54,707 nt of DNA, from the IMG/VR virus record IMGVR_UViG_3300025809_000025, positions 1-54,707 of that record; one strand, written 5' to 3'. Source of the DNA: a virus (Duplodnaviria; Caudoviricetes). The notes under the pieces were generated by a model. The model was not told the origin of the DNA. It did no database searches and was given only the letters and a program-made list of their open reading frames with translations. Made by a program: the position numbers and the translations under genes. How positions within the stretch are numbered: position 1 is the stretch's first letter; each line of letters begins with the position of its first letter. Shown piece by piece: positions 1 to 27,660 of this stretch.

Positions 1-1629
1 GTTAAGTCTTAGGCAAGAAGCCCCAGACTGCGTAGCCGATGCCTGTCCAGTGGGTGCAACCTCAAAACCTGCATTAGCGAGACCTTGCGTAGTTTTACCC
101 ACCAACAGGTTTCGTGAGGCATCAATTCGCATGGCTTCTACATTGTTTGTTCTAAACTGCATATCTCCGTTTTCACGGTTATTGATAAACGCAGTTACTC
201 CTGAATGACTAATATCAAAACCATCTGTATTGGCATTGCCTTGCGCGTCTGAGCTTAGTTTTAAAGTAGAGCCTGTAGAACCACTGACATGAAGTGTTGT
301 ATCAGCATAAGAAGTTGGCAAACTAGTACCAATACCTACGCTACCTGAGAACGTGGCGTTGCCTGATGAGTTTATAACAAAGCGGCTTACACCTTGCGTT
401 ACATCTCGTATTTCAAAGCCATTGTTGGATACACCTGATATTACGGGCGCTATTCTCCAATTTGTAACTGTAGTTCCCCATGTGTTTTGTAATTCAAGCC
501 TACCAGACCCATTAGCACCAGATAAATGTAACAGAGAAGCAGGATTCGTAACGCCCAACCCTAGCCGCGAGGTAGAACTATCCCAATAGAAATTTTGTGA
601 AGTCCCCGCAGAATCGTAGAAGCTGATGTCACCGCCAGTGGCTATGTCTAGCCTAAGCACTTCAGACCCAGAAGCCCCTGACCTAAACTGATAACGTCCG
701 TTATAAAAGTTATCAAATTTTACTATTTCGTCAGAATCAAGATTTATTGCGGCATCTATCGTCCCACTGCGATTCCATTGAATACCTCTCTTTTGAACTC
801 CGTTTCTATCAACAGTAAGCCCATCGGCTGTCACTGAGCCTGATACCAACACAGCGCCTGATGAAAATCTAGCAACCTCAGTAGAGCCGTTAAAAATTTC
901 TACCCTAGACCCTGAGTCAACACTATTAGCATCTGATGTAATTCTTAAATTGTCACTAGCAGACAAAATCGTGTGCGATAAATTTGTAACGCTTGAATCG
1001 TTAAAGGTAATAGTAGGATTTGTGTCACCTAGCGTAATATCTCCCGTGACCGAAATTCCGCTAGAGGTGGTGGCTACAGAAATATTTCCTGCGTGGCGTA
1101 AAGTTACAGCACCGCCTTGGAGGGCTTCCATATACAGCGTATTGTTTGCATCGCGTAGATTGAGGTGCGTTCCTTTGATAATTAAGTTGCCAGTGCCTAC
1201 ATCCGAAATGTAGCTATGGCTACCATCACCATAGATTTCTAACTGGCTGTTAAAGATTGCCTTATTGTTTGTACCAAGTGACAGGTTGCCTGTCATCGTA
1301 TCTCCAGTAATGGAGACAGATTCTGTGTCGGCTTGGGTGCTTAAATCATTTAGTGCAGCAGCAGTTACACGGAGTGAAAACTCCGCGCCAGAGGAATGGC
1401 TTATTGCAGTCGTGCCGTCCTGCCCCCTTACAACTGTAAAGGTCGTTCCCGAGATGGCTGTTACCTTGACAATCTCCGAGCCTGAACCCGTTCCGATTGT
1501 TGCATAGAAATAATCACTGCCTCCCAACGTAGGGAAGAGTGAAGCGCTGGTAACACTGAGAGACGTTGCTGTATCAGAAACGCCACTAGCCAGCGTAGTG
1601 CTAGCTAGGTTCGAGAACTTAATCGCCAT
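1..1629 (-). CDS. Tail fibre protein, N-terminal part (runs off the left end)
   Basis: Missing from the ORF track. ATG at 1629 after GGAG; the frame is open to position 1: MAIKFSNLASTTLASGVSDTATSLSV...EIVKVTAISGTTFTVVRGQDGT...GSVGIGTS...EAMRIDASRNLLVGKT, typical tail-fibre motifs. Confidence 0.85.
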   Translation of the reverse strand, partial: MAIKFSNLASTTLASGVSDTATSLSVTSASLFPTLGGSDYFYATIGTGSGSEIVKVTAISGTTFTVVRGQDGTTAISHSSGAEFSLRVTAAALNDLSTQADTESVSITGDTMTGNLSLGTNNKAIFNSQLEIYGDGSHSYISDVGTGNLIIKGTHLNLRDANNTLYMEALQGGAVTLRHAGNISVATTSSGISVTGDITLGDTNPTITFNDSSVTNLSHTILSASDNLRITSDANSVDSGSRVEIFNGSTEVARFSSGAVLVSGSVTADGLTVDRNGVQKRGIQWNRSGTIDAAINLDSDEIVKFDNFYNGRYQFRSGASGSEVLRLDIATGGDISFYDSAGTSQNFYWDSSTSRLGLGVTNPASLLHLSGANGSGRLELQNTWGTTVTNWRIAPVISGVSNNGFEIRDVTQGVSRFVINSSGNATFSGSVGIGTSLPTSYADTTLHVSGSTGSTLKLSSDAQGNANTDGFDISHSGVTAFINNRENGDMQFRTNNVEAMRIDASRNLLVGKTTQGLANAGFEVAPTGQASATQSGASCLRLN

Positions 1630-14208: not shown

Positions 14209-14309
14209 AACTATTTAAAGCGTTTATCGAGACTAACCTAGCAATCTATCTAGTTGGCGCTTGGGTGACGGTTACCGTCATCTATATCGCCTTTAGCAAC
14301 CTAGCCTGA
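14205..14309 (+). CDS. Small membrane protein (34 aa)
   Basis: GTG start overlapping the upstream TGA, GGAGG RBS; MKLFKAFIETNLAIYLVGAWVTVTVIYIAFSNLA. Confidence 0.55.
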   Translation: MKLFKAFIETNLAIYLVGAWVTVTVIYIAFSNLA

Positions 14310-14320
14310 GGAGGCTCACC

Positions 14321-14587
14321 ATGTCCCAAACATCAAGAAAGATCACCTACTTTCAACACAGCAACGGTGTTGATTTCGCTTACGAGGCAAACAACCCTGC
14401 TGATAGTTGGCTACCAGTCGTCAACTATCCGCACAGAGTCTGGGTCAGTTGCAACCCAATTAATGACTCAGGTTGGCGATATGCCAACGTTAAAAAGACT
14501 GTCGCCTATATCGTTGTCGATGAGGACGACCACGGTCAGCCAGTGATCGAGAAGTGGTCAATTAAGAATCACCGTAACTTCCATTGA
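14321..14587 (+). CDS. Early hypothetical protein
   Basis: 88 aa, strong RBS; RYANVKKTVAYIVVDEDD.G.P..EKW.I motif. Confidence 0.75.
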   Translation: MSQTSRKITYFQHSNGVDFAYEANNPADSWLPVVNYPHRVWVSCNPINDSGWRYANVKKTVAYIVVDEDDHGQPVIEKWSIKNHRNFH

Positions 14588-14660
14588 GTAAGCACTGAGA
14601 GCGCCTTCGCTGAGGGCGTTCAACTGTATTTATTCAACTCAGCCTGAGGAGGCAACCATT

Positions 14661-15530
14661 ATGAAAAAATATGACGAACTATTTGAGAAAGTAACCAACC
14701 GAATTATCCAGAACCTAGAGAGCGCTGATCGATGGCAGAAGCCGTGGGCTTCAATCGCTGACGGATCAGTACCCCATAACGCCAGTACAGGCAGACCCTA
14801 TTCTGGGATCAACTTCTTTAACCTTGGGTTTGAGTCTGAAAAGTGGGGGAACACTGGATGGCTAACCTACAAACAAGCTACCGCTCTGGGTGGCACTGTA
14901 CCCAAGAACAGCGCAGAGAATGGCGGCTGTGAGTATGTCTGGTTTATGGCTAAGTCGATCTATAAAGATAAGCAGACTGGCGATGACAAGATGGGATTTA
15001 TCAACAAGTGCTTCCCAGTATGGAATGTTGCCCAGATCGAAGGGCTAGAGGGTGGCAAGCAATACACCCCACCATCAGCGGGTACAGGTGCAGTCAACAG
15101 ACTGGCTGATAGCCTCAACATCAATCTTCAATATGGTGGTGATAAAGCTTGTTTCATCCCATCCATTGACACCATCAAGATGCCATCAGTTGATGCCTTT
15201 ACGACTGAGGCAAATCATGACGCAACCCTGCTTCATGAGATGGTCCATTGGACTGGTCACTCTGACCGACTAAAGCGCCAGATCAATAACAGCTTTGCAT
15301 CTGAAGGCTATGCCTTTGAAGAGTTAGTTGCTGAGTTAGGTGCGGCAATGGGTGGTGCTCTGTTAGGTATCCCCTACGAGGGACTGCAACACGAGTCCTA
15401 TATTAAGTCATGGCTTAAGTCTCTTAAGGATGACCCCAGACATATCGTTAAGGCGGCTAAGCAAGCGTCTAAGGCTGTTCAGTATCTAGATGAGAACGGT
15501 AGTACTGACCTATTGGAGCAGGCGGCATAA
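14661..15530 (+). CDS. ardC: ArdC-family antirestriction protein (ssDNA-binding domain + zincin metallopeptidase)
   Basis: W.KPW...P.N..TGRPYSGIN...WLTYKQA...WNVAQ N-domain; HEMVHWTGH..RLKR...YAFEELVAELG...HESYIKSWL. Confidence 0.9.
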   Translation: MKKYDELFEKVTNRIIQNLESADRWQKPWASIADGSVPHNASTGRPYSGINFFNLGFESEKWGNTGWLTYKQATALGGTVPKNSAENGGCEYVWFMAKSIYKDKQTGDDKMGFINKCFPVWNVAQIEGLEGGKQYTPPSAGTGAVNRLADSLNINLQYGGDKACFIPSIDTIKMPSVDAFTTEANHDATLLHEMVHWTGHSDRLKRQINNSFASEGYAFEELVAELGAAMGGALLGIPYEGLQHESYIKSWLKSLKDDPRHIVKAAKQASKAVQYLDENGSTDLLEQAA

Positions 15531-15564
15531 GGGTGAAAGATTTATTTTCCCCGACTCAAAAAAT

Positions 15565-15622
15565 TCTAGCTGATGAGCAACTGGATGGTGACCAGTCGAA
15601 ACGCCCAGTGGGGCGTCCTAGA
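15565..15622 (+). ncRNA. Hammerhead ribozyme, type I
   Basis: UCUAG-CUGAUGA-G(CA)ACUGG[AUGGUGA]CCAGUC-GAAA-CGCCC[AGUG]GGGCG-UC^-CUAGA: full core; GUC cleavage after 15617. Confidence 0.93.
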
Positions 15623-15650
15623 TAACCAACAATCCTGAGGAGGATTAAAT

Positions 15651-15956
15651 ATGCAAAAAGCACACTTGCACCTCATTAAATGGGGCTTAGAAAAAGGATA
15701 CACAATTGAGGTTGATATTGAAGGTCATCATGAGTATCGCGGTACTAGCTACAAGGAAGCAAAGGAAGCCAGTGAAGCCGGAGATATGGGCTGTATATAT
15801 CTTATCACTGGTCAAGCCGAAACAGACTACTCCTACTTTGGCTATATGCACGAGTGGAAGCAAAATCCTGATGAAATAATCTATGACTACGGTCTTGATG
15901 CTGTCTCTGAAGAATGGGCGCGTGATTACGATAAGCATTGCGAGGTTGCGGAATGA
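15651..15956 (+). CDS. Early hypothetical protein
   Basis: 101-aa acidic ORF with GAGGAGG RBS. Confidence 0.75.
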   Translation: MQKAHLHLIKWGLEKGYTIEVDIEGHHEYRGTSYKEAKEASEAGDMGCIYLITGQAETDYSYFGYMHEWKQNPDEIIYDYGLDAVSEEWARDYDKHCEVAE

Positions 15957-16222
15957 AGTCTACCACCAAGCGAATTGATGAAGCTAAAAGTCGTATCGAA
16001 CAAGCTAGCGATGAGATTGATCGAGCCAAAGAGGCAATAATATTGTTCGTCCTCGTAAATCGAAACCGAAAACGAGTTGCTGAATTGTCAGGCGTACACC
16101 TAAACACAGTGTCTGATTTTGTCAGCGGTCGGAGAGGCGGCATACGTCTAGACACCTTGATCAAGATCGAAAAAGCTTGCCACGTCATCAAAGAGAGTCC
16201 GTTTTTTATGCCGAAGAGTTAG
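15953..16222 (+). CDS. XRE/Cro-type HTH protein
   Basis: KRVAELSGVHLNTVSDFVSGR....RLDTLIKIEKA; ATGA overlap start at 15953. Confidence 0.75.
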   Translation: MKSTTKRIDEAKSRIEQASDEIDRAKEAIILFVLVNRNRKRVAELSGVHLNTVSDFVSGRRGGIRLDTLIKIEKACHVIKESPFFMPKS

Positions 16223-16307
16223 TCGGAGTAAACAGCAGGGAGCTACCTGAATGGTAGTTTCTTAGTGTTAATTCCAACACTACAACTAATCCTGAGGAGG
16301 ATTAATC

Positions 16308-21818: not shown

Positions 21819-22537
21819 TTGACAGCCCCCAACAGATCATTCTTTCTGTCGTGACCTCTAAATGACTTAAGAGCATCCCAGTCAGGCTTACCAACAGACT
21901 TCCACTCCCTGCTGATTGCAAAATCCACAACACCTGACAAGTCAAAGCCTTGCTTTTTAAGAACAAGAAAGTCCTGAGAAATGACCGTAATCATTTTCTT
22001 GGCAGGCTTCCTACCTTTACGATCATCAAGCTTGTACTCCCACCACTTAACCCAAGCGGCTTTCGTTACACCTTCTGGTGGAGCGTTAAGGAGAGAAGAA
22101 CGCCAACATATTTGTTCTTTCTTATCTTCGTTAGTAATAATGTTTGTTCTTTGGGTTTGATTTACTTGATCTGGGTTTACTTGATCTGGGTTTTGATGAT
22201 CTGGTGGAAAGCGACCGCGAACATCTGTAACTAGCCAGTCCCATCGGACAACATGACCACTTTCGTTTCGGACAATTTCTCTACGGATATACCCTGCGTT
22301 CTCTAGCTCATCAGTAATGCGAGTCATCTTCACATTGCCGACACCAAAGACTGTACAGAGTTGGTTGTTAGTTATTTGCCAGTCATCGACATGGCTTAAA
22401 AGGTAGACAAGAACACCGAGGGATTCGGGGCTAAGTCCATCGCCTCTATACTCGCTGGCGGAAAATCCACCTCGAAGGAGTAAGTTGGGGATTCGGGTAT
22501 AATAATCTTGCTTAAGATTGGCAGGACGAAAAATCAT
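21815..22537 (-). CDS. Replication initiator protein (HTH, lambda O / DnaD-like architecture)
   Basis: YTRIPN...LSPESLGVLVYLLS..DDW...ELENAGYI winged-HTH; repeat linker; C-terminal W..W.EYK...AISREW domain. Confidence 0.75.
   Translation of the reverse strand: MIFRPANLKQDYYTRIPNLLLRGGFSASEYRGDGLSPESLGVLVYLLSHVDDWQITNNQLCTVFGVGNVKMTRITDELENAGYIRREIVRNESGHVVRWDWLVTDVRGRFPPDHQNPDQVNPDQVNQTQRTNIITNEDKKEQICWRSSLLNAPPEGVTKAAWVKWWEYKLDDRKGRKPAKKMITVISQDFLVLKKQGFDLSGVVDFAISREWKSVGKPDWDALKSFRGHDRKNDLLGAVK
22151..22205. repeat. Iteron-like tandem repeats (putative origin of replication)
   Basis: TTTACTTGATCTGGG x2 (22161-22190), a degenerate copy TTTTGATGATCTGGT and a partial copy, next to an AT-rich tract inside the initiator gene. 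Confidence 0.65.
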
Positions 22538-22575
22538 TAATCAGACAGCTCCATGTAATATTCATTTGAGCAGGG

Positions 22576-22604
22576 ATAATAATCTGCATGTATTAATTTG
22601 GCAA
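22576..22604 (-). promoter_or_regulatory. Leftward promoter for the replication operon
   Basis: Minus strand TTGCCA-17 nt-TATTAT; an operator-like motif lies in the spacer. Confidence 0.65.
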
Positions 22605-22671
22605 ATTTATTTATCTGAAGGTCTTGTTAAATGATCTTAAATATGGAAGATCCTGACTCAGGGAGAAATAC

Positions 22672-23085
22672 ATGGACGATAAAACTAAAAAAGAAAAACG
22701 TGCGGAAATATTTAAAGACGCTTTAGATCAAGCGGGAGTGCCGGAATGGGGCAGGGGCGCAGCGATTGTAAAGCAGACCGGCTGTAGCCCAGCTTCAGCG
22801 CAGGCTTGGATTCGAGGAAGCCTGCCATCGGACGGGGAGCGTATAGTAGAGTTATGTGATCTTTATCACATTGACTTATACCTATGGATAACCTTGGCGT
22901 CGCGAGGTGATTCGCTGATAGCAGATTCGATGACTGAAGCTATCATTTACGTTAAGCATTTTGAGGAAAAAACAGCTTTCACCCTTACACCAGAGCAGTT
23001 TTCTCTTATGTGTCTAATGTATACAGATGCTCGAAAGCGCGATGGGATAGCAGGCATGATGAAAGTTTTGACTGCAAAAGGTTAA
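22672..23085 (+). CDS. Putative prophage repressor (HTH)
   Basis: F..AL...G.P..GRGAAIVKQTGCSPASAQAWIRGSLP....IVELC; divergent from the replication operon; no C-terminal peptidase domain visible. Confidence 0.75.
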   Translation: MDDKTKKEKRAEIFKDALDQAGVPEWGRGAAIVKQTGCSPASAQAWIRGSLPSDGERIVELCDLYHIDLYLWITLASRGDSLIADSMTEAIIYVKHFEEKTAFTLTPEQFSLMCLMYTDARKRDGIAGMMKVLTAKG

Positions 23086-23147
23086 TCAAATATTTATATT
23101 TGAAAGATAATTTTTAAAGAAATAATTACATTAAATGGACGTTTTAT

Positions 23148-23339
23148 ATGGCAAGAGTTACACCGGAAGATAGATTAAGCTGTAATCAGTTGCTTAAATT
23201 TTTAAGAGGCAATGATGGTATTCGTAGTGAATTTTATATAGGGAGGCGAAACTTTTGGAAACACTATGAGACAGTTAAAATGATTGAGACAGGTTTAGAA
23301 AATAAAATAAAAAATTTAGATGACGATTTAACAATCTGA
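23148..23339 (+). CDS. Hypothetical protein in AT-rich patch
   Basis: 63-aa ORF, weak RBS. Confidence 0.4.
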   Translation: MARVTPEDRLSCNQLLKFLRGNDGIRSEFYIGRRNFWKHYETVKMIETGLENKIKNLDDDLTI

Positions 23340-23344
23340 AAGTG

Positions 23345-23373
23345 TTGAAATAAATCTGCATGGTGTGTAATAT
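23345..23373 (+). promoter_or_regulatory. Promoter for the recombination operon
   Basis: TTGAAA-17 nt-TAATAT overlapped by two operator-like motifs. Confidence 0.65.
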
Positions 23374-23399
23374 GTCTGTTGAATTAACGGAGATATTAC

Positions 23400-24053
23400 A
23401 TGGATATGCTTACCCGAGCCCAAATCTGGGCGACACTGTCTAATATAGATGTAACAGAATTTTGTACCGAAACAGAGATACTCGACAATAAAACGTTGAC
23501 CTATCTGCCTTGGATGAAAGCCCATGAAATCATGATGGGCGAGTTTCCTGAATACTCTTGGGAGTTCACCGAAGACCCTTCTTCTCGTGAATGTCACTAT
23601 TTTGATGATGGTTCTGCCGAAGTTAGGTGCCGAATGACTATCGGTGGGCAGACCAACATCACCTACTTACCTGTCCACTCCTCTGGCAAAGCAGTCAGTT
23701 CACCCTCAGCAACCGATATCAACCAAGCTAAACAGCGGTGTCGTGTTAAGGCAATGGGTGAGTTTGGTCTGGGCTACCGGATGTGGATTAGCTCTCAAAT
23801 TAAAGATATTGAGTCTAAAAGTGCTTCTCAAGATGTACAAAGTACACCTCCAGAAACAGATGATGCAGATGCAGAACTTCAAAAGGTTATTGCGATCTGG
23901 GATCACCTGAAGTTTGGTGACGCCAAGACCCTGAGTGAAGCCACAAAGCTGTACGACAAGTTTAAACGTGGTCTAACTAATAGAGGCTTAACAGATACCA
24001 CTGGTAACTGGGAAAAGCTCTGTAAGGAGAATGGTTGGAGGGCTAAGAAATGA
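23400..24053 (+). CDS. Sak/Rad52-like single-strand annealing protein (DUF1071)
   Basis: W.TLS.IDV...LTYLPW..A...LPV...DIN.A.QRC.VKA...FGLG. Confidence 0.85.
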   Translation: MDMLTRAQIWATLSNIDVTEFCTETEILDNKTLTYLPWMKAHEIMMGEFPEYSWEFTEDPSSRECHYFDDGSAEVRCRMTIGGQTNITYLPVHSSGKAVSSPSATDINQAKQRCRVKAMGEFGLGYRMWISSQIKDIESKSASQDVQSTPPETDDADAELQKVIAIWDHLKFGDAKTLSEATKLYDKFKRGLTNRGLTDTTGNWEKLCKENGWRAKK

Positions 24054-25078
24054 GTTTAGCTGTCCAAGGATCACCCGAATGGCACGCGGCAAGAGCTGGA
24101 AAGATCAAAGCATCTGTCTGCGCCGCGCTAGAGGGTAAGCACCCATACATGAAACCTGCTGACTTAGTTCGCCAAGAAGTACGAGCGCTGGCAGGGGCTG
24201 AATCAGAATTCAAGATGGTTCCGGCAGTTGCTCACGGGCAAATGATGGAAGACCATGCAAGGATCTTTCTTGAGAACTTGCAGGACTACACTGTCGAAGA
24301 GACTGGTCTAGTTGTACATCCTAAGTATGACTTTATTGCAGCATCTCCAGACGGACTTGTCGGACTTGACGGTTGCGTTGAGATTAAGTGTCCGTTCCCC
24401 CAATACACTAAGACCCCTTACTCTATCTTTGCTCCCAAGAGAAGCATGTACCTAATGCAGGTCTATATGCAGATGGAAGTGCTTGATGCAGAGTGGTGTG
24501 ATTTTATTTGCTACCTCGCAAAAAATGAAACGGCGGAACCCCAGTACACGTTGGAGAGAGTTCACCGCAAGGAAGACTTTCTAACTGAACTGTTAAGCCG
24601 CAAGTACCTGCCTCAGCCTGAGAAGGGAACTATCTCTCGCCTTGATCTATATAGATGTTGGCACAACTGGATTCAAGAACAGTATAGAGACGAAGTAACC
24701 CGAGCTGAACACGTAAAAACAATTGAGGTCAACGCTCCTGAGGTCATTAAGACCGATGAGGAACTGAACCGACTAACTGCAATGCAGAACAGGATTGCAG
24801 ACATTAAGTCACGAATCAGTGACGACTTAGAAACCTTGGACGTACTGGGAAAGACCAGTGACTCCCTGAAAAAAGATATCGCCGAACGTTACAAGAGTTC
24901 TGTCAGCAATGGCAAGACTACTGTGAAGGTGATTATGAAGAACCCACCAATAGACTATAGAAAAGCGTTCGAGTTCTTGGGTGGTGAAGATGAAGTATTA
25001 AATAAAGACGAGTCCCTAGATTCTTTTCGAAGATCGACGGGAGCAATGCAGGTACAAATTCAACACGGAGAAGTGTAA
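24050..25078 (+). CDS. YqaJ / lambda-exonuclease family protein
   Basis: QGSPEWHAARAG.I.AS...HG...E..AR...ASPDGLV....VEIKCP...Y.MQV..QM. Confidence 0.9.
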   Translation: MSLAVQGSPEWHAARAGKIKASVCAALEGKHPYMKPADLVRQEVRALAGAESEFKMVPAVAHGQMMEDHARIFLENLQDYTVEETGLVVHPKYDFIAASPDGLVGLDGCVEIKCPFPQYTKTPYSIFAPKRSMYLMQVYMQMEVLDAEWCDFICYLAKNETAEPQYTLERVHRKEDFLTELLSRKYLPQPEKGTISRLDLYRCWHNWIQEQYRDEVTRAEHVKTIEVNAPEVIKTDEELNRLTAMQNRIADIKSRISDDLETLDVLGKTSDSLKKDIAERYKSSVSNGKTTVKVIMKNPPIDYRKAFEFLGGEDEVLNKDESLDSFRRSTGAMQVQIQHGEV

Positions 25079-25452
25079 TGCAAAAACCAACAGCATTTGA
25101 ATCATTAAAAGCCGGCAAGGGTAGATTATACCCAATGCCAAAAGAGAAGCGCGTCGAAGAGTGGAACCGCCTTAAGCAATACGACTGGGCAACCAAAGCA
25201 CATGTGCCAAAGTTCGATGGCTTTATTAAAGTTAGTCGCGAGTTAGTCGCTGACCTACAGGCTGCTCTTGACGTACATGGCGGTAACGACTTCCGCTACA
25301 ACATAAAAGTCTGCGAGCAGATGGGTGACGATGGGAACTTACAGCAGTTAAATGTTGATTACTGGATTCCTAAGCCAAACCCTAATACGCAATCTTCAGC
25401 GCCAGCAGCTGCGCCTGCTGACGACTTTTTAGACGACGACCTACCTTTCTAA
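25078..25452 (+). CDS. Putative single-stranded DNA-binding protein
   Basis: Acidic SSB-type tail DDFLDDDLPF; follows the Sak and exonuclease genes. Confidence 0.65.
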   Translation: MQKPTAFESLKAGKGRLYPMPKEKRVEEWNRLKQYDWATKAHVPKFDGFIKVSRELVADLQAALDVHGGNDFRYNIKVCEQMGDDGNLQQLNVDYWIPKPNPNTQSSAPAAAPADDFLDDDLPF

Positions 25453-25463
25453 GGACTTACTAA

Positions 25464-25865
25464 ATGCCTCTAAGAATTACCCGAAGAGCTAACTCCGTCT
25501 TTTATGGCGGAGAAAGCCTTGACCCCGACGACCTCGAAGGCACTTTCGATCATCGAGTTTGGGTTCGCGGTGTAGTGGACTTGGACGGCAGACATGAGGC
25601 GATCCTTAACGTGCATACCAAACGTAAAGGGCATCAGGACCATGTATTAACTGCTGGGGATGAAGGTCTTCAGCTTACTGATTCTGTGTTTGTCGAGATG
25701 ACAGGTGTACAGCCGTATTTTGTAAAACCCCAAGTAACGTGCCCTGAATGCGGACGATCTGATGGAGTAGGGGCTAAGCCCTTTATGTTGCCATCAGCGA
25801 AGCTGCTAGTAGGAGCACCCCGAAACTACCAAATAGTGCGTGATGACGCGAGGAAAAAGAAATGA
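25464..25865 (+). CDS. CsrA/RsmA-like RNA-binding protein (extended, possible tandem repeat)
   Basis: N-terminal LRITRR....F.GG matches CsrA LILTRR.GE...IG; C-terminal AKLLVGAPRNYQIVRDD matches VRIGVNAPKEVSVHREE; about twice CsrA length. Confidence 0.6.
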   Translation: MPLRITRRANSVFYGGESLDPDDLEGTFDHRVWVRGVVDLDGRHEAILNVHTKRKGHQDHVLTAGDEGLQLTDSVFVEMTGVQPYFVKPQVTCPECGRSDGVGAKPFMLPSAKLLVGAPRNYQIVRDDARKKK

Positions 25866-26122
25866 GTGAACAACCACAAATTATCTCTATCGATAATACC
25901 CCTTACTTAATTGATGACCTAAGTGATCTGTGTAAAGAGCAACTTAACCTAGCACAGGCAGGCAGCCAAGCCCTTGGGCAAAAGCAAGCTGAAGCTAAGC
26001 TCTTACAGATGGGTCTTGACGTTGCGCTTAGTGAAGCTAAGAAATTGTTGCCTGAACCTTATCAAGCTGAAGCTGCTGAAGAAGCAGACGAAGATGTTGA
26101 AGTGGTAGATAACCGCCACTAA
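25862..26122 (+). CDS. Acidic hypothetical protein
   Basis: IISIDNTPYLIDDLSD..KEQL motif; ATGA overlap. Confidence 0.7.
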   Translation: MSEQPQIISIDNTPYLIDDLSDLCKEQLNLAQAGSQALGQKQAEAKLLQMGLDVALSEAKKLLPEPYQAEAAEEADEDVEVVDNRH

Positions 26123-26243
26123 GGCTCCCCTAGAGGGTTAGGGCGTTCCCTCCTCACGTCCTTTTATAGCAGGCTTGGTCTACCTGTCCCTCGAGAACAG
26201 ACCTTTTTATTAGGGCATACGAGTGTTAATCTAACATTGCGGT

Positions 26244-27185
26244 ATGTCTCTGTTCATGGAGACGAATATGAAGCTAACATTTAAAGAAATAACTGATCGC
26301 TATCTTCTGCAACCAACAGATCATAACGATGAGAAGCAGAGAACCACGGTCATAGTGGCTAATAACCTTGTTAAGGTGTTTGGCTCTAAGCCGATAAAGT
26401 CTTTCGAGAAGATCGCTCTAATCGATAACTTTATAGAGAATCTGCGAGTACAACCATCTAGGAGGAATATAGGTCACAGAGTCAGCAACAGCTGGGTAAA
26501 CAAGCACATCATAACTGTGCGTGCCATTCTTAACTATGCTTATAGCAAAGAGCATATCCAAAGAGTGCCGAAGTTGTCGGTGTATCCTGAAAAGAAAAGC
26601 AAAGTTTTCCTAAAGCCAGAGCAGGTTCTAAAACTTATAGATAGCTTAGATGACTTAAGAGCAAGCATGGTTAGGTTTGGTGTAGCAACTGGGCTACGCA
26701 AATCAAACATAAGGCTTCTGAAGTGGGATCAAATAGAGCCAGATTTTTCAGCTCTACTTGTTGACGGTGATGATGCCAAGATGGGTGAAGAGATTCGCAT
26801 ACCTCTGAACAGTGATGCTCAGAAAGTTTTGCGGGAAAGGAAAGCCATCAACGATTCTTTAATTAAGAAACATAAGTACCTTAACAACGGAATCGATTAT
26901 GTGTTTGTGCAACAAGTAGGTGGAGGTACTAAGGTGGGCAAAGTTCTGGGTGAGATCACTAATCGCACTTGGAGAAATGCTTGTAACAAAGCAGGAATGC
27001 CAGCCAAGACAACCTTCCATACTATGCGTCACACATTCGCCAGCTGGCACATTGAGAACGGGACGAGCGAGATGATTCTTATGGAGTTAGGGGGGTGGAA
27101 AGATCGTACTTCATTGCAACGATATGCCCATTTAAACCAAGCCCAAAGACAGGTCGCATCGTCAAATATTGAAGGAATAATTTAA
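26244..27185 (+). CDS. int: Tyrosine integrase (start may be 26268)
   Basis: ATGLRKSNI..LKW, FHTMRHTFASW, ELGGW, RYAH catalytic motifs; adjacent to a tRNA fragment. Confidence 0.92.
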   Translation: MSLFMETNMKLTFKEITDRYLLQPTDHNDEKQRTTVIVANNLVKVFGSKPIKSFEKIALIDNFIENLRVQPSRRNIGHRVSNSWVNKHIITVRAILNYAYSKEHIQRVPKLSVYPEKKSKVFLKPEQVLKLIDSLDDLRASMVRFGVATGLRKSNIRLLKWDQIEPDFSALLVDGDDAKMGEEIRIPLNSDAQKVLRERKAINDSLIKKHKYLNNGIDYVFVQQVGGGTKVGKVLGEITNRTWRNACNKAGMPAKTTFHTMRHTFASWHIENGTSEMILMELGGWKDRTSLQRYAHLNQAQRQVASSNIEGII

Positions 27186-27208
27186 TCATAAACATAATCT
27201 ATCAGCTG

Positions 27209-27322
27209 TAACCTATTGATAAATAAAGAAATGGTGCCGGAAAGAGGACTTGAACCTCCGACCAATTGCTTACGAAGCAACTGCTTTATACTATTTTTTT
27301 ATTCAATTAAATCAATAACTTA
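27209..27322. mobile_element. attP: 3' half of tRNA-Thr(CGT) (27232-27285, minus strand) flanked by IHF sites
   Basis: Minus strand GTTGC-TTCGTAA-GCAAT anticodon arm, GGAGG-TTCAAGT-CCTCT T-arm, TTCCGGC-A-CCA end; no D-arm or 5' acceptor strand. IHF consensus WATCAANNNNTTR at 27209-27221 (minus) and 27310-27322 (plus). Confidence 0.88.
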
Positions 27323-27368
27323 CAGATTCATGCCGCAAGGTTATAGCTGGTAATATTGAGGGAAAACA

Positions 27369-27557
27369 ATGGATATAAAGAAAGCAATTAGAGACGCCAA
27401 CGACTTCGCTGATGAAGCAATAGCTGACACTTGTGGAGACTTAAAGAGTATCGAAGCCACCACAAAGAGATGGATGAACGCAGGAACATACAACCTACAG
27501 AACAAGCATTTGTTTGGGTGGTTTGTTGTTACTGTAGCTCTCTGTTTAGTGTTTTGA
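27369..27557 (+). CDS. Small protein with C-terminal TM helix
   Basis: 62 aa, GAGGG RBS, hydrophobic end LFGWFVVTVALCLVF. Confidence 0.55.
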   Translation: MDIKKAIRDANDFADEAIADTCGDLKSIEATTKRWMNAGTYNLQNKHLFGWFVVTVALCLVF

Positions 27558-27660
27558 TATACCAAAAAAACATGGAGCAGATTGCAAATATTCATTAGCC
27601 GTTAAGCTAAAACAACACTACAATGCGCCCTCACTTTAATTGAGAGTAAGGATTTTTGTA

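Follow-up and report, generated by a model that had tools for sequence, protein, structure and literature searches.

The virus record IMGVR_UViG_3300025809_000025, analysed here over its full length of 54,707 nucleotides (54.7 kb; CheckV completeness 100%) and hereafter called the window, carries on its plus strand a gene at positions 25464..25865 (stop codon included) whose product of 133 amino acids (aa) appears from its sequence to be a double-length, highly diverged relative of the RNA regulator CsrA, encoded by a marine phage and belonging to an unannotated family. The gene is found in the list of open reading frames of the window and begins with ATG; an initial annotation of this DNA, made by a model from the letters and the reading frames, had quoted the same frame of 133 aa with an identical translation. 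Eight nucleotides (nt) upstream of the ATG, a putative Shine-Dalgarno (SD) sequence, AAGGA (25451..25455, +), was read from the sequence, and this element contains the triplet GGA. The gene's own leader (25450-25466, +) reads UAAGGACUUA, and with the GGA lying within the SD it could be a site of self-regulation. At the other end of the gene, the stop codon shares the letters ATGA (25862-25865, +) with the ATG of the following gene, orf86, an overlap that suggests translational coupling of the two genes.

With regard to the distribution of the family, 19 near relatives were present in a set of 5.8 billion proteins, and an exhaustive HMMER search of 1.84 billion proteins gave 30 representatives at an expectation value (E) of 1e-3 or lower, nearly all of them 115–133 aa long and, when aligned, 31–80% identical to the window protein. 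Homologous viral loci were found on contigs 72 times. Substitutions among nine equal-length relatives numbered 219, 177 and 546 at codon positions 1, 2 and 3, respectively. Because of the relatives, the 72 loci and this third-position bias, it is evident that the 133-aa frame is a real gene under purifying selection. All the family members shown carry the source name 'hypothetical protein'. The window protein and two divergent members, P0044 and P0046, gave no tblastn match in 50,697 deposited phage records, and a contig scan of species-representative bacterial genomes revealed no prophage copy of the family.

Read from the N-terminus, and with all segments on the plus strand, the protein begins with a CsrA-like β1-β2 unit (residues 1–16, MPLRITRR...YGG; 25464..25511), which was recognised by hhalign and corresponds to strands 2–8 and 11–16 of the AlphaFold2 (AF2) model described below. 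It is followed by a 13-residue insert after β2 (residues 17–29; 25512..25550), which in the model holds a short helix (24–27) and is placed as the insert of RsmN is in the accessible part of PMC3791407, and by a predicted β-hairpin (residues 30–52, strands 30–40 and 43–52; 25551..25619) that would replace the β3-β4 of a partner chain. Residues 56–87 (25629..25724) provide β1'-β2'-β3' of a complete CsrA unit, as judged by hhalign (59–90) and by the Pfam matches of the relatives P0020 and P0043; the basic residues of strand β1' have been lost. The β3'-β4' loop holds a CxxCG(R) insert (residues 88–106, with C93 and C96; 25725..25781), where the hhalign alignment with CsrA shows a gap, and residues 107–133 (AKLLVGAPRNYQIVRDDARKKK; 25782..25862) make up β4'-β5'-helix according to hhalign (105–133) and BLASTP of P0046. 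The CPEC insert to which the initial annotation had drawn attention is indeed present: when the family was filtered at 80% identity to 38 sequences (nr80), C93 was found in 82% and C96 in 84% of them, though the insert is missing from the most divergent members, P0043–P0046 and L151. It is a possible metal knuckle. The GC-rich phage contigs L151–L153 encode divergent, insert-less members of 114 aa with about 30% identity.

CsrA, which is among the best-studied bacterial RNA regulators, is defined by being an obligate homodimer of intertwined chains, whose two RNA faces are identical. Similarity to it was detected through relatives of the window protein. At E ≤ 10, 16 of the 30 family members matched the Pfam family PF02599, for which the gathering cut-off is 27 bits; the best match, that of P0046 (E = 1.2e-6, 28.8 bits), was the sole one above this cut-off among ten individually scored members. 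The best PF02599 scores were those of P0043–P0046 (115–121 aa), which are the most divergent members, have an MLILTR-like start and are without the CxxC insert. Residues 67–114 of P0043 fell on positions 12–50 of the Pfam model and residues 65–82 of P0020 on positions 9–26, and BLASTP of P0046 against E. coli CsrA (from the K-12 record) gave two collinear pieces, 1–19 to 1–19 and 93–113 to 30–50. The window protein itself lies below the PF02599 cut-off, a six-frame search of the whole record for PF02599 gave no match, and comparison of the protein with PHROGs returned two insignificant matches only (E = 0.2 and 0.33), with function unknown.

Profile-profile comparison was performed with hhalign, using 72 non-identical family sequences against 62 CsrA sequences (E. 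coli and viral contigs) and reversed sequences as controls. Family residues 60–132 aligned with CsrA 2–50, which is the whole core, at 92.8–93.9% (E = 1.6e-7 to 4e-7; reversed controls 3.0% and 1.8%), and the homology to β1–β5 of CsrA was thereby found at the profile level. Residues 59–90 (HVLTAGDEGLQLTDSVFVEMTGV...) aligned with CsrA 2–31 in a β1-β3-like manner at 86% (controls 10% and 4.5%), residues 105–133 with CsrA 27–50 at 85% (0.4%), and the N-terminal slice 1–28, aligned over 2–25, with CsrA 1–24, covering β1-β2, at 77% (E = 2e-5; 0.1%). Both ends of the protein are in other words CsrA-like, as the initial annotation had stated. In the alignment of 60–132, residues 84–109, which carry the CxxC, form an insertion at the short β3-β4 turn of CsrA. 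The 62-sequence CsrA alignment was needed for these results; the single E. coli CsrA sequence aligned with the family over 2–20 to 1–19 only (39%). We consider it very probable that the 133-aa family is derived from CsrA.

The AF2 monomer model obtained with 50 sequences (down to 32% identity) reached a predicted local distance difference test (pLDDT) value of 87.0 and a predicted template modelling (pTM) score of 0.76, with all five models at pLDDT 80–87. The model made with the 17 close sequences only was unusable (pLDDT 46.5) and gave noise in Foldseek. In the 50-sequence model nine strands are seen, 2–8, 11–16, 30–40, 43–52, 56–63, (69–70), 76–87, 107–117 and 123–126, together with helices at 24–27 and 127–131, and the weakest region is the insert 91–110 (pLDDT 69–74). 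The order β1-β2-β3-β4-β5-helix is present at residues 56–131. The N-terminal unit is incomplete in the model, consisting of β1-β2, the 13-residue insert and the hairpin, without β5 or helix. VIA-align placed RsmA (1vpz_A) on positions 55..133 of the model (Z 4.1, root mean square deviation (rmsd) 2.8 Å, 53/57 residues, 26% identity) and RsmN (4kji_A) on positions 2..130 (Z 4.4, rmsd 2.4 Å, 53/64 residues, 24% identity). Among the rows shown, these two had the highest identity, and they covered 83–93% of the shorter chain. The best match among the predicted viral structures of BFVD was a 114-aa 'Carbon storage regulator' from an uncultured phage (E = 1.9e-4, template modelling (TM) scores 0.57/0.66); in the ESM Atlas the best score was 0.81, which is chance level.

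The sheets of RsmA have the order β5A-β2B-β3B-β4B-β1A plus its mirror image (available parts of PMC3791407 and PMC7652899). The RNA surfaces of CsrA are formed by parallel β1 and β5 strands from opposing monomers, with L4 and R44 being critical (PMC7652899, same parts), and R44 is also termed essential in the accessible text of PMC7366521. In the arrangement that we propose for the phage protein, residues 56–133 would be a complete CsrA unit (β1'-β5' plus helix), chain 'B'. A lone CsrA chain cannot close the β-sandwich, and residues 1–52 would supply the strands of the partner chain: strand 43–52 would lie at β4A, joined via a three-residue turn to 56–63 (β1B), strand 30–40 at β3A, 11–16 at β2A and 2–8 at β1A, adjoining β4B. 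The outcome would be a nine-stranded sandwich in which the β5A strand and one helix are absent. Both alignment ranges would be accounted for in this way, because RsmA matches C1–C5 and RsmN matches N1, N2, C3, C4 and C5, the latter since β1 and β5 of RsmN lie on one chain.

The conservation pattern of the family is asymmetric. Among the 38 nr80 sequences, only the columns M1, L3, R7, G16, P119 and R126 are conserved in at least 90%; L3, R7 and G16 are each found in 97%, while P119 and R126 are invariant (38/38), R126 being the residue that aligns with R44 of CsrA. Position I5 is hydrophobic in 97% of the set, and D128 and A129 are kept in 82–84%. All conserved positions fall in the N-terminal β1-β2 and the C-terminal β5. 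Counterparts of the RNA-contacting residues of CsrA (the hydrophobic L4, and R44) are found on one face only (I5, R7, R126, P119); strand 56–63 has kept L62 and has no conserved arginine or other basic residue, and the β5 of the first unit is absent. The intact face would be built of the N-terminal β1 (L3, I5, R7) and the C-terminal β5 (P119, R126, D127, D128), and the symmetry-related face would have lost its arginines and its β5 strand. Sequence conservation and model together suggest one intact RNA face and a degenerate second one, in keeping with the asymmetry that the initial annotation had proposed. A one-chain, one-face fold is in our view rather probable, and the protein is presumably a monomer. 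Our preferred reading, to which we assign a probability of roughly 55%, is that the protein is a diverged, CsrA-derived RNA-binding protein with a monomeric 'pseudo-dimer' fold, the homology, strand order and conservation all being in silico results.

A candidate target for such a protein is present in the same phage. The repeated SD hairpins pointed out in the initial annotation were recovered as four exact copies of CCTGAGGAGG on the plus strand, at 14305, 14643, 15634 and 16291 (within 14305..16300), each with a GAGG loop between the two halves of the stem and each lying 6–8 nt upstream of an ATG. When up to one mismatch was allowed, nine matches were found in the window, a number reached in none of 100 shuffles. 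One of the genes behind these hairpins encodes an ArdC-like anti-restriction protein (14661-15530, +) with an ArdcN and a zincin metallopeptidase domain (PHROG 7245, E = 5.8e-60), and the remaining ones are small unknowns. Covariation was examined at 31 sites from five records, where the motif folds as stem-GAGG loop-stem (N-CCU-GAGG-AGG-N') and is followed by a start codon in 29 of the 31 cases. The first flanking pair was complementary at 29 sites (AT 10, TA 9, GC 7, CG 2, TG 1), compared with a mean of 12.6 in shuffles, none of which (0/2000) reached 29.

The SD hairpin CCUGAGGAGG also co-occurs with the 133-aa gene across the lineage, which is what the initial annotation had proposed to look for. 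Of 15 records that bear the family, 10 have the exact 10-mer, including all four of those with at least 90% completeness, where it occurs in 2–11 copies per record, on one strand and clustered; by comparison, of 20 long viral records in which the csrA is canonical, one has it, as a single copy. The reversed pattern was absent (0) from the ten records searched exactly. In the window four genes are preceded by hairpins, and in related phages (L172, L173, L174 and L175) as many as 11 consecutive genes are; the exact 10-mer is kept where the proteins are about 38–46% identical, with six copies in a record whose protein is about 38% identical. The GC-rich contigs L151–L153 and G033 hold one-mismatch SD variants only, such as CTTGAGGAGG, seen twice, and all of these are on one strand. 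A 14-mer scan of all viral contigs gave mostly single matches, which is chance level at the size of that collection, and was not used. Rfam, at gathering as well as permissive thresholds, detected no ribozyme or other RNA family in the window, and the ribozymes that the initial annotation had listed beside the hairpins are not supported. There is a clear association of gene and hairpins at the level of this one phage lineage, which is not independent of ancestry. On the strength of the co-occurrence we tentatively name the SD hairpins as the leading candidate target of the 133-aa protein, with a likelihood well below even.

The bridging of two sites by CsrA and its capture by multi-site decoy RNAs both depend on its having two sites. 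We propose that the 133-aa protein would recognise a motif of the GGA type close to ribosome-binding sites, and that translation or the fate of the mRNA would be controlled in this way. Its likeliest targets would be the phage's own SD hairpins before 4 to 11 consecutive genes, a putatively early operon that includes the ArdC-like gene, and the protein, if made later in infection, would repress the early messages. With a single site it would therefore not bridge two sites as CsrA does, and multi-site decoy RNAs should hold it less tightly. In its full form, this proposal is that a monovalent single-chain CsrA and lineage-wide SD-sequestering hairpins constitute a translational switch owned by the phage, expressed from the recombination/integrase operon, in which 1:1 binding would turn early genes off (or on), host decoys of the CsrB/CsrC type would hold the protein weakly and the CxxC knuckle, placed beside the intact face, would extend or retune recognition. 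We offer this larger scheme as a speculative model that is more likely wrong than right in at least some part.

A number of observations weigh against the reading of the protein as a one-faced CsrA derivative acting on these hairpins. The window protein itself had no match in Pfam (E ≤ 10), NCBIfam or the PDB sequences, and phmmer together with a profile of 17 close relatives found no CsrA among the PDB sequences, only zinc-finger-like CPECG noise. Compared with CsrA half by half, as the initial annotation had suggested, the C-terminal half aligned at the 93–94% given above, and the N-terminal half did so over 2–25; its residues 26–63 showed no similarity to CsrA above the level of the controls (0.1%). 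The second set of β strands that had been assigned to the middle of the protein consequently stands for 59–90 and does not for 26–63 (DHRVWVRGV...EAILNV), which is a predicted β-hairpin. Moreover, the two halves of the family showed no similarity to each other (hhalign 0.3%), which leaves an origin by duplication unproven. As to structure, the monomer was confidently modelled and RsmA and RsmN could be aligned to it, but Foldseek of the 50-sequence model against PDB chains gave nothing at E ≤ 1e-3, and the CsrA-family rows of VIA-align ranked 37 and 42 with Z values of 4.1–4.4, inside the stated noise band of the tool. The Foldseek miss may in part be caused by the fact that a deposited CsrA chain is one protomer of an interlocked dimer. 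Higher Z values went to unrelated single-chain sandwiches (the CcsBA periplasmic domain 9.6, CcmF 6.9 and DUF1608 6.7), matches which we read as a shared general arrangement. It should also be underlined that the strand pairing and the adjacency of β1 and β5' are deduced from hairpin connectivity and alignment ranges, and not from model coordinates. The single-chain pseudo-dimer of the initial annotation is thus favoured by the compact monomer model and by the fit of RsmA to the C-terminal half and of RsmN across both ends, whereas its first unit is incomplete and a tandem duplication is not demonstrated. With regard to the hairpins, 5 of the 15 family-bearing records are without the exact motif, all of them 39–83% complete, and the contigs G001 and G004 may stop short of the region that corresponds to the hairpin cluster of the window. 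The co-occurrence is also confounded by shared ancestry, several records being near-duplicates, and the GGA of the SD hairpin straddles the boundary of loop and stem, which is not the canonical loop presentation of CsrA sites.

The 133-aa gene lies among recombination genes, all on the plus strand. A Sak annealing protein (23400-24053; 69 of the 72 loci) and a YqaJ-type exonuclease (24050-25078; 72 of 72), both identified by Pfam and PHROGs, are followed by orf124 (25078-25452; 65 of 72), with an acidic ...DDDLPF tail, the 133-aa gene, orf86 (25862-26122; 52 of 72) and a tyrosine integrase identified by NCBIfam (26244-27185; 65 of 72). The order orf137 (60 of 72), Sak, YqaJ, orf124, 133-aa gene, orf86, integrase is the same in all 72 loci, which belong to one phage lineage with YqaJ proteins 29–100% identical. 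The tail of orf124 (...DDFLDDDLPF) is accompanied by sub-threshold NCBIfam matches to single-stranded DNA-binding protein (SSB) at E = 0.03 and 0.14, over residues 46–124 and 88–124, respectively. This acidic tail resembles the C-terminal tip of SSB, and orf124 could be a divergent SSB or a mimic of its tail. Just downstream of the integrase, a partial tRNA match (27241-27295, −; 27.4 bits against a threshold of 29, model positions 6–65) probably marks an attP core in which part of a host tRNA gene is copied; ARAGORN found no tRNA in the window. A promoter and terminator scan of 22000-27600 revealed no excess of sites over shuffles.

The strict synteny with Sak, YqaJ and the SSB-like tail of orf124 (65–72 of 72 loci) is what would be expected if the CsrA-like scaffold had been given another task, such as binding to single-stranded DNA or to a partner protein of the surrounding recombination module, or competing for the Csr targets or decoy RNAs of the host instead of acting on phage messages. 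In Vibrio phage VvAW1 too, a canonical csrA adjoins an exonuclease gene, and an SSB gene follows about 2.2 kb downstream. Since the 72 loci form one lineage, their synteny says little about function and may reflect common descent only, and the best-conserved residues of the family are the RNA-contact positions of CsrA; we therefore hold such a change of task to be unlikely. A different use of the fold, as a homo-oligomer formed via the sheet edge that the missing strand leaves open or a metal shared through the CxxC, would restore two RNA sites and bridging. In favour of this reading, each chain offers two cysteines (C93 and C96), half the usual set of four ligands, and the strands of the model number nine instead of ten, with the lowest confidence in the insert; against it, the monomer is compact and confident without a partner, and the CxxC, being absent in the most divergent members, is not essential to the basic function. 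A two-copy homodimer prediction with the 50-row alignment scored 0.17 against a mark of 0.42 and counts neither way, and oligomerisation appears to us somewhat less likely still than a change of task. That the likeness to CsrA is convergent or due to chance in an unrelated small β-sandwich, as the lack of a direct hidden Markov model match for the window protein and the strongest structural Z values of non-CsrA sandwiches might suggest, is very improbable in view of the transitive links via relatives (one above Pfam's curated cut-off), the three segments collinear with CsrA well above reversed controls, the 24–26% identity to RsmA and RsmN over near-complete chains and a top BFVD match that is named carbon storage regulator.

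If the CsrA-derived, one-chain and one-face family that we favour is real, it would be the evolutionary counterpart of engineered single-site heterodimers, would show a route from a swapped dimer to a monomer and would offer a small monovalent binder of GGA-RNA for study or use as a tool. Csr-type control in phages is probably undercounted, because the family is invisible to standard annotation. The repeated SD hairpin also deserves to be studied in its own right as a regulatory element.

By homology the family is CsrA-derived, yet by architecture (short chain, swapped homodimer, two faces) it is not canonical. It shares with CsrA/RsmA/RsmE (PF02599) the core β1-β5-helix (56–133) and the N-terminal β1-β2, and the equivalents of L2, L4 and R6 as well as the AP...R44-E-E motif are kept. 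Canonical CsrA has 60–75 aa and forms an intertwined homodimer with two identical faces, whereas the phage protein is twice as long and apparently a self-sufficient single chain with one conserved RNA face, its second surface being without β5 and basic residues. It differs further in the 13-residue insert after β2 and the CxxC insert in the β3-β4 loop, and in that the Pfam model misses most family members, the window protein among them. Metagenomic CsrA-CsrA proteins (P0170–P0173 and P0179; 139–167 aa, singleton clusters), in which two complete units are joined by a linker of 15–25 residues, likewise hold two CsrA-like parts in one polypeptide and represent natural covalent CsrA dimers or else the read-through of neighbouring genes. 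These fusions are symmetric and near-canonical, presumably have two intact sites and were each seen once, whereas the phage family is asymmetric, widespread and truncated in its first part, of which only β1-β2 is detectable by sequence. Phage T4 RegA, a translational repressor, shuts off many early messages by binding at their ribosome-binding regions; it is a possible, hypothetical parallel in function, its fold being unrelated.

Carriage of csrA by phages is already known: ordinary csrA genes of about 60 aa were found in 88 INPHARED records and 364 IMG/VR stretches, and csrA homologues have been described in 30 of 2517 phages (PMC7366521, available text). What appears to be new here, as far as sequence and model can tell, is the single-chain, one-faced variant. 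In the literature searched, a tandem, single-chain or monomeric CsrA was nowhere reported, with the limit that the supplementary homologue tables of PMC7366521 might list long forms. RsmN/RsmF of P. aeruginosa (4kji) has the order β1-β2-helix-β3-β4-β5 without a C-terminal helix, is a docked homodimer of about 71 aa and forms its RNA faces from β1 and β5 of the same chain (accessible part of PMC3791407). It resembles the phage protein in the helix-bearing insert between β2 and β3 (helix 24–27 in the latter) and in the same-chain RNA face. The two differ in that RsmN is a 71-aa homodimer with two sites and no C-terminal helix, whereas the 133-aa phage protein keeps helix 127–131 and would have four extra strands in place of a second subunit, so that it falls outside the RsmN/RsmF subfamily. 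In function, the protein may be likened to the engineered single-site CsrA heterodimers, of which one chain carries R44A (Mercante et al. 2009, as covered in the review PMC7652899). According to the same review, full repression of glgC needed both CsrA sites and was lost with the single-site heterodimers. As in those heterodimers, each particle of the phage protein would have one working and one dead RNA surface; the heterodimers are two-chain laboratory constructs, whereas the phage protein would be a counterpart from nature, joined covalently and maintained by selection.

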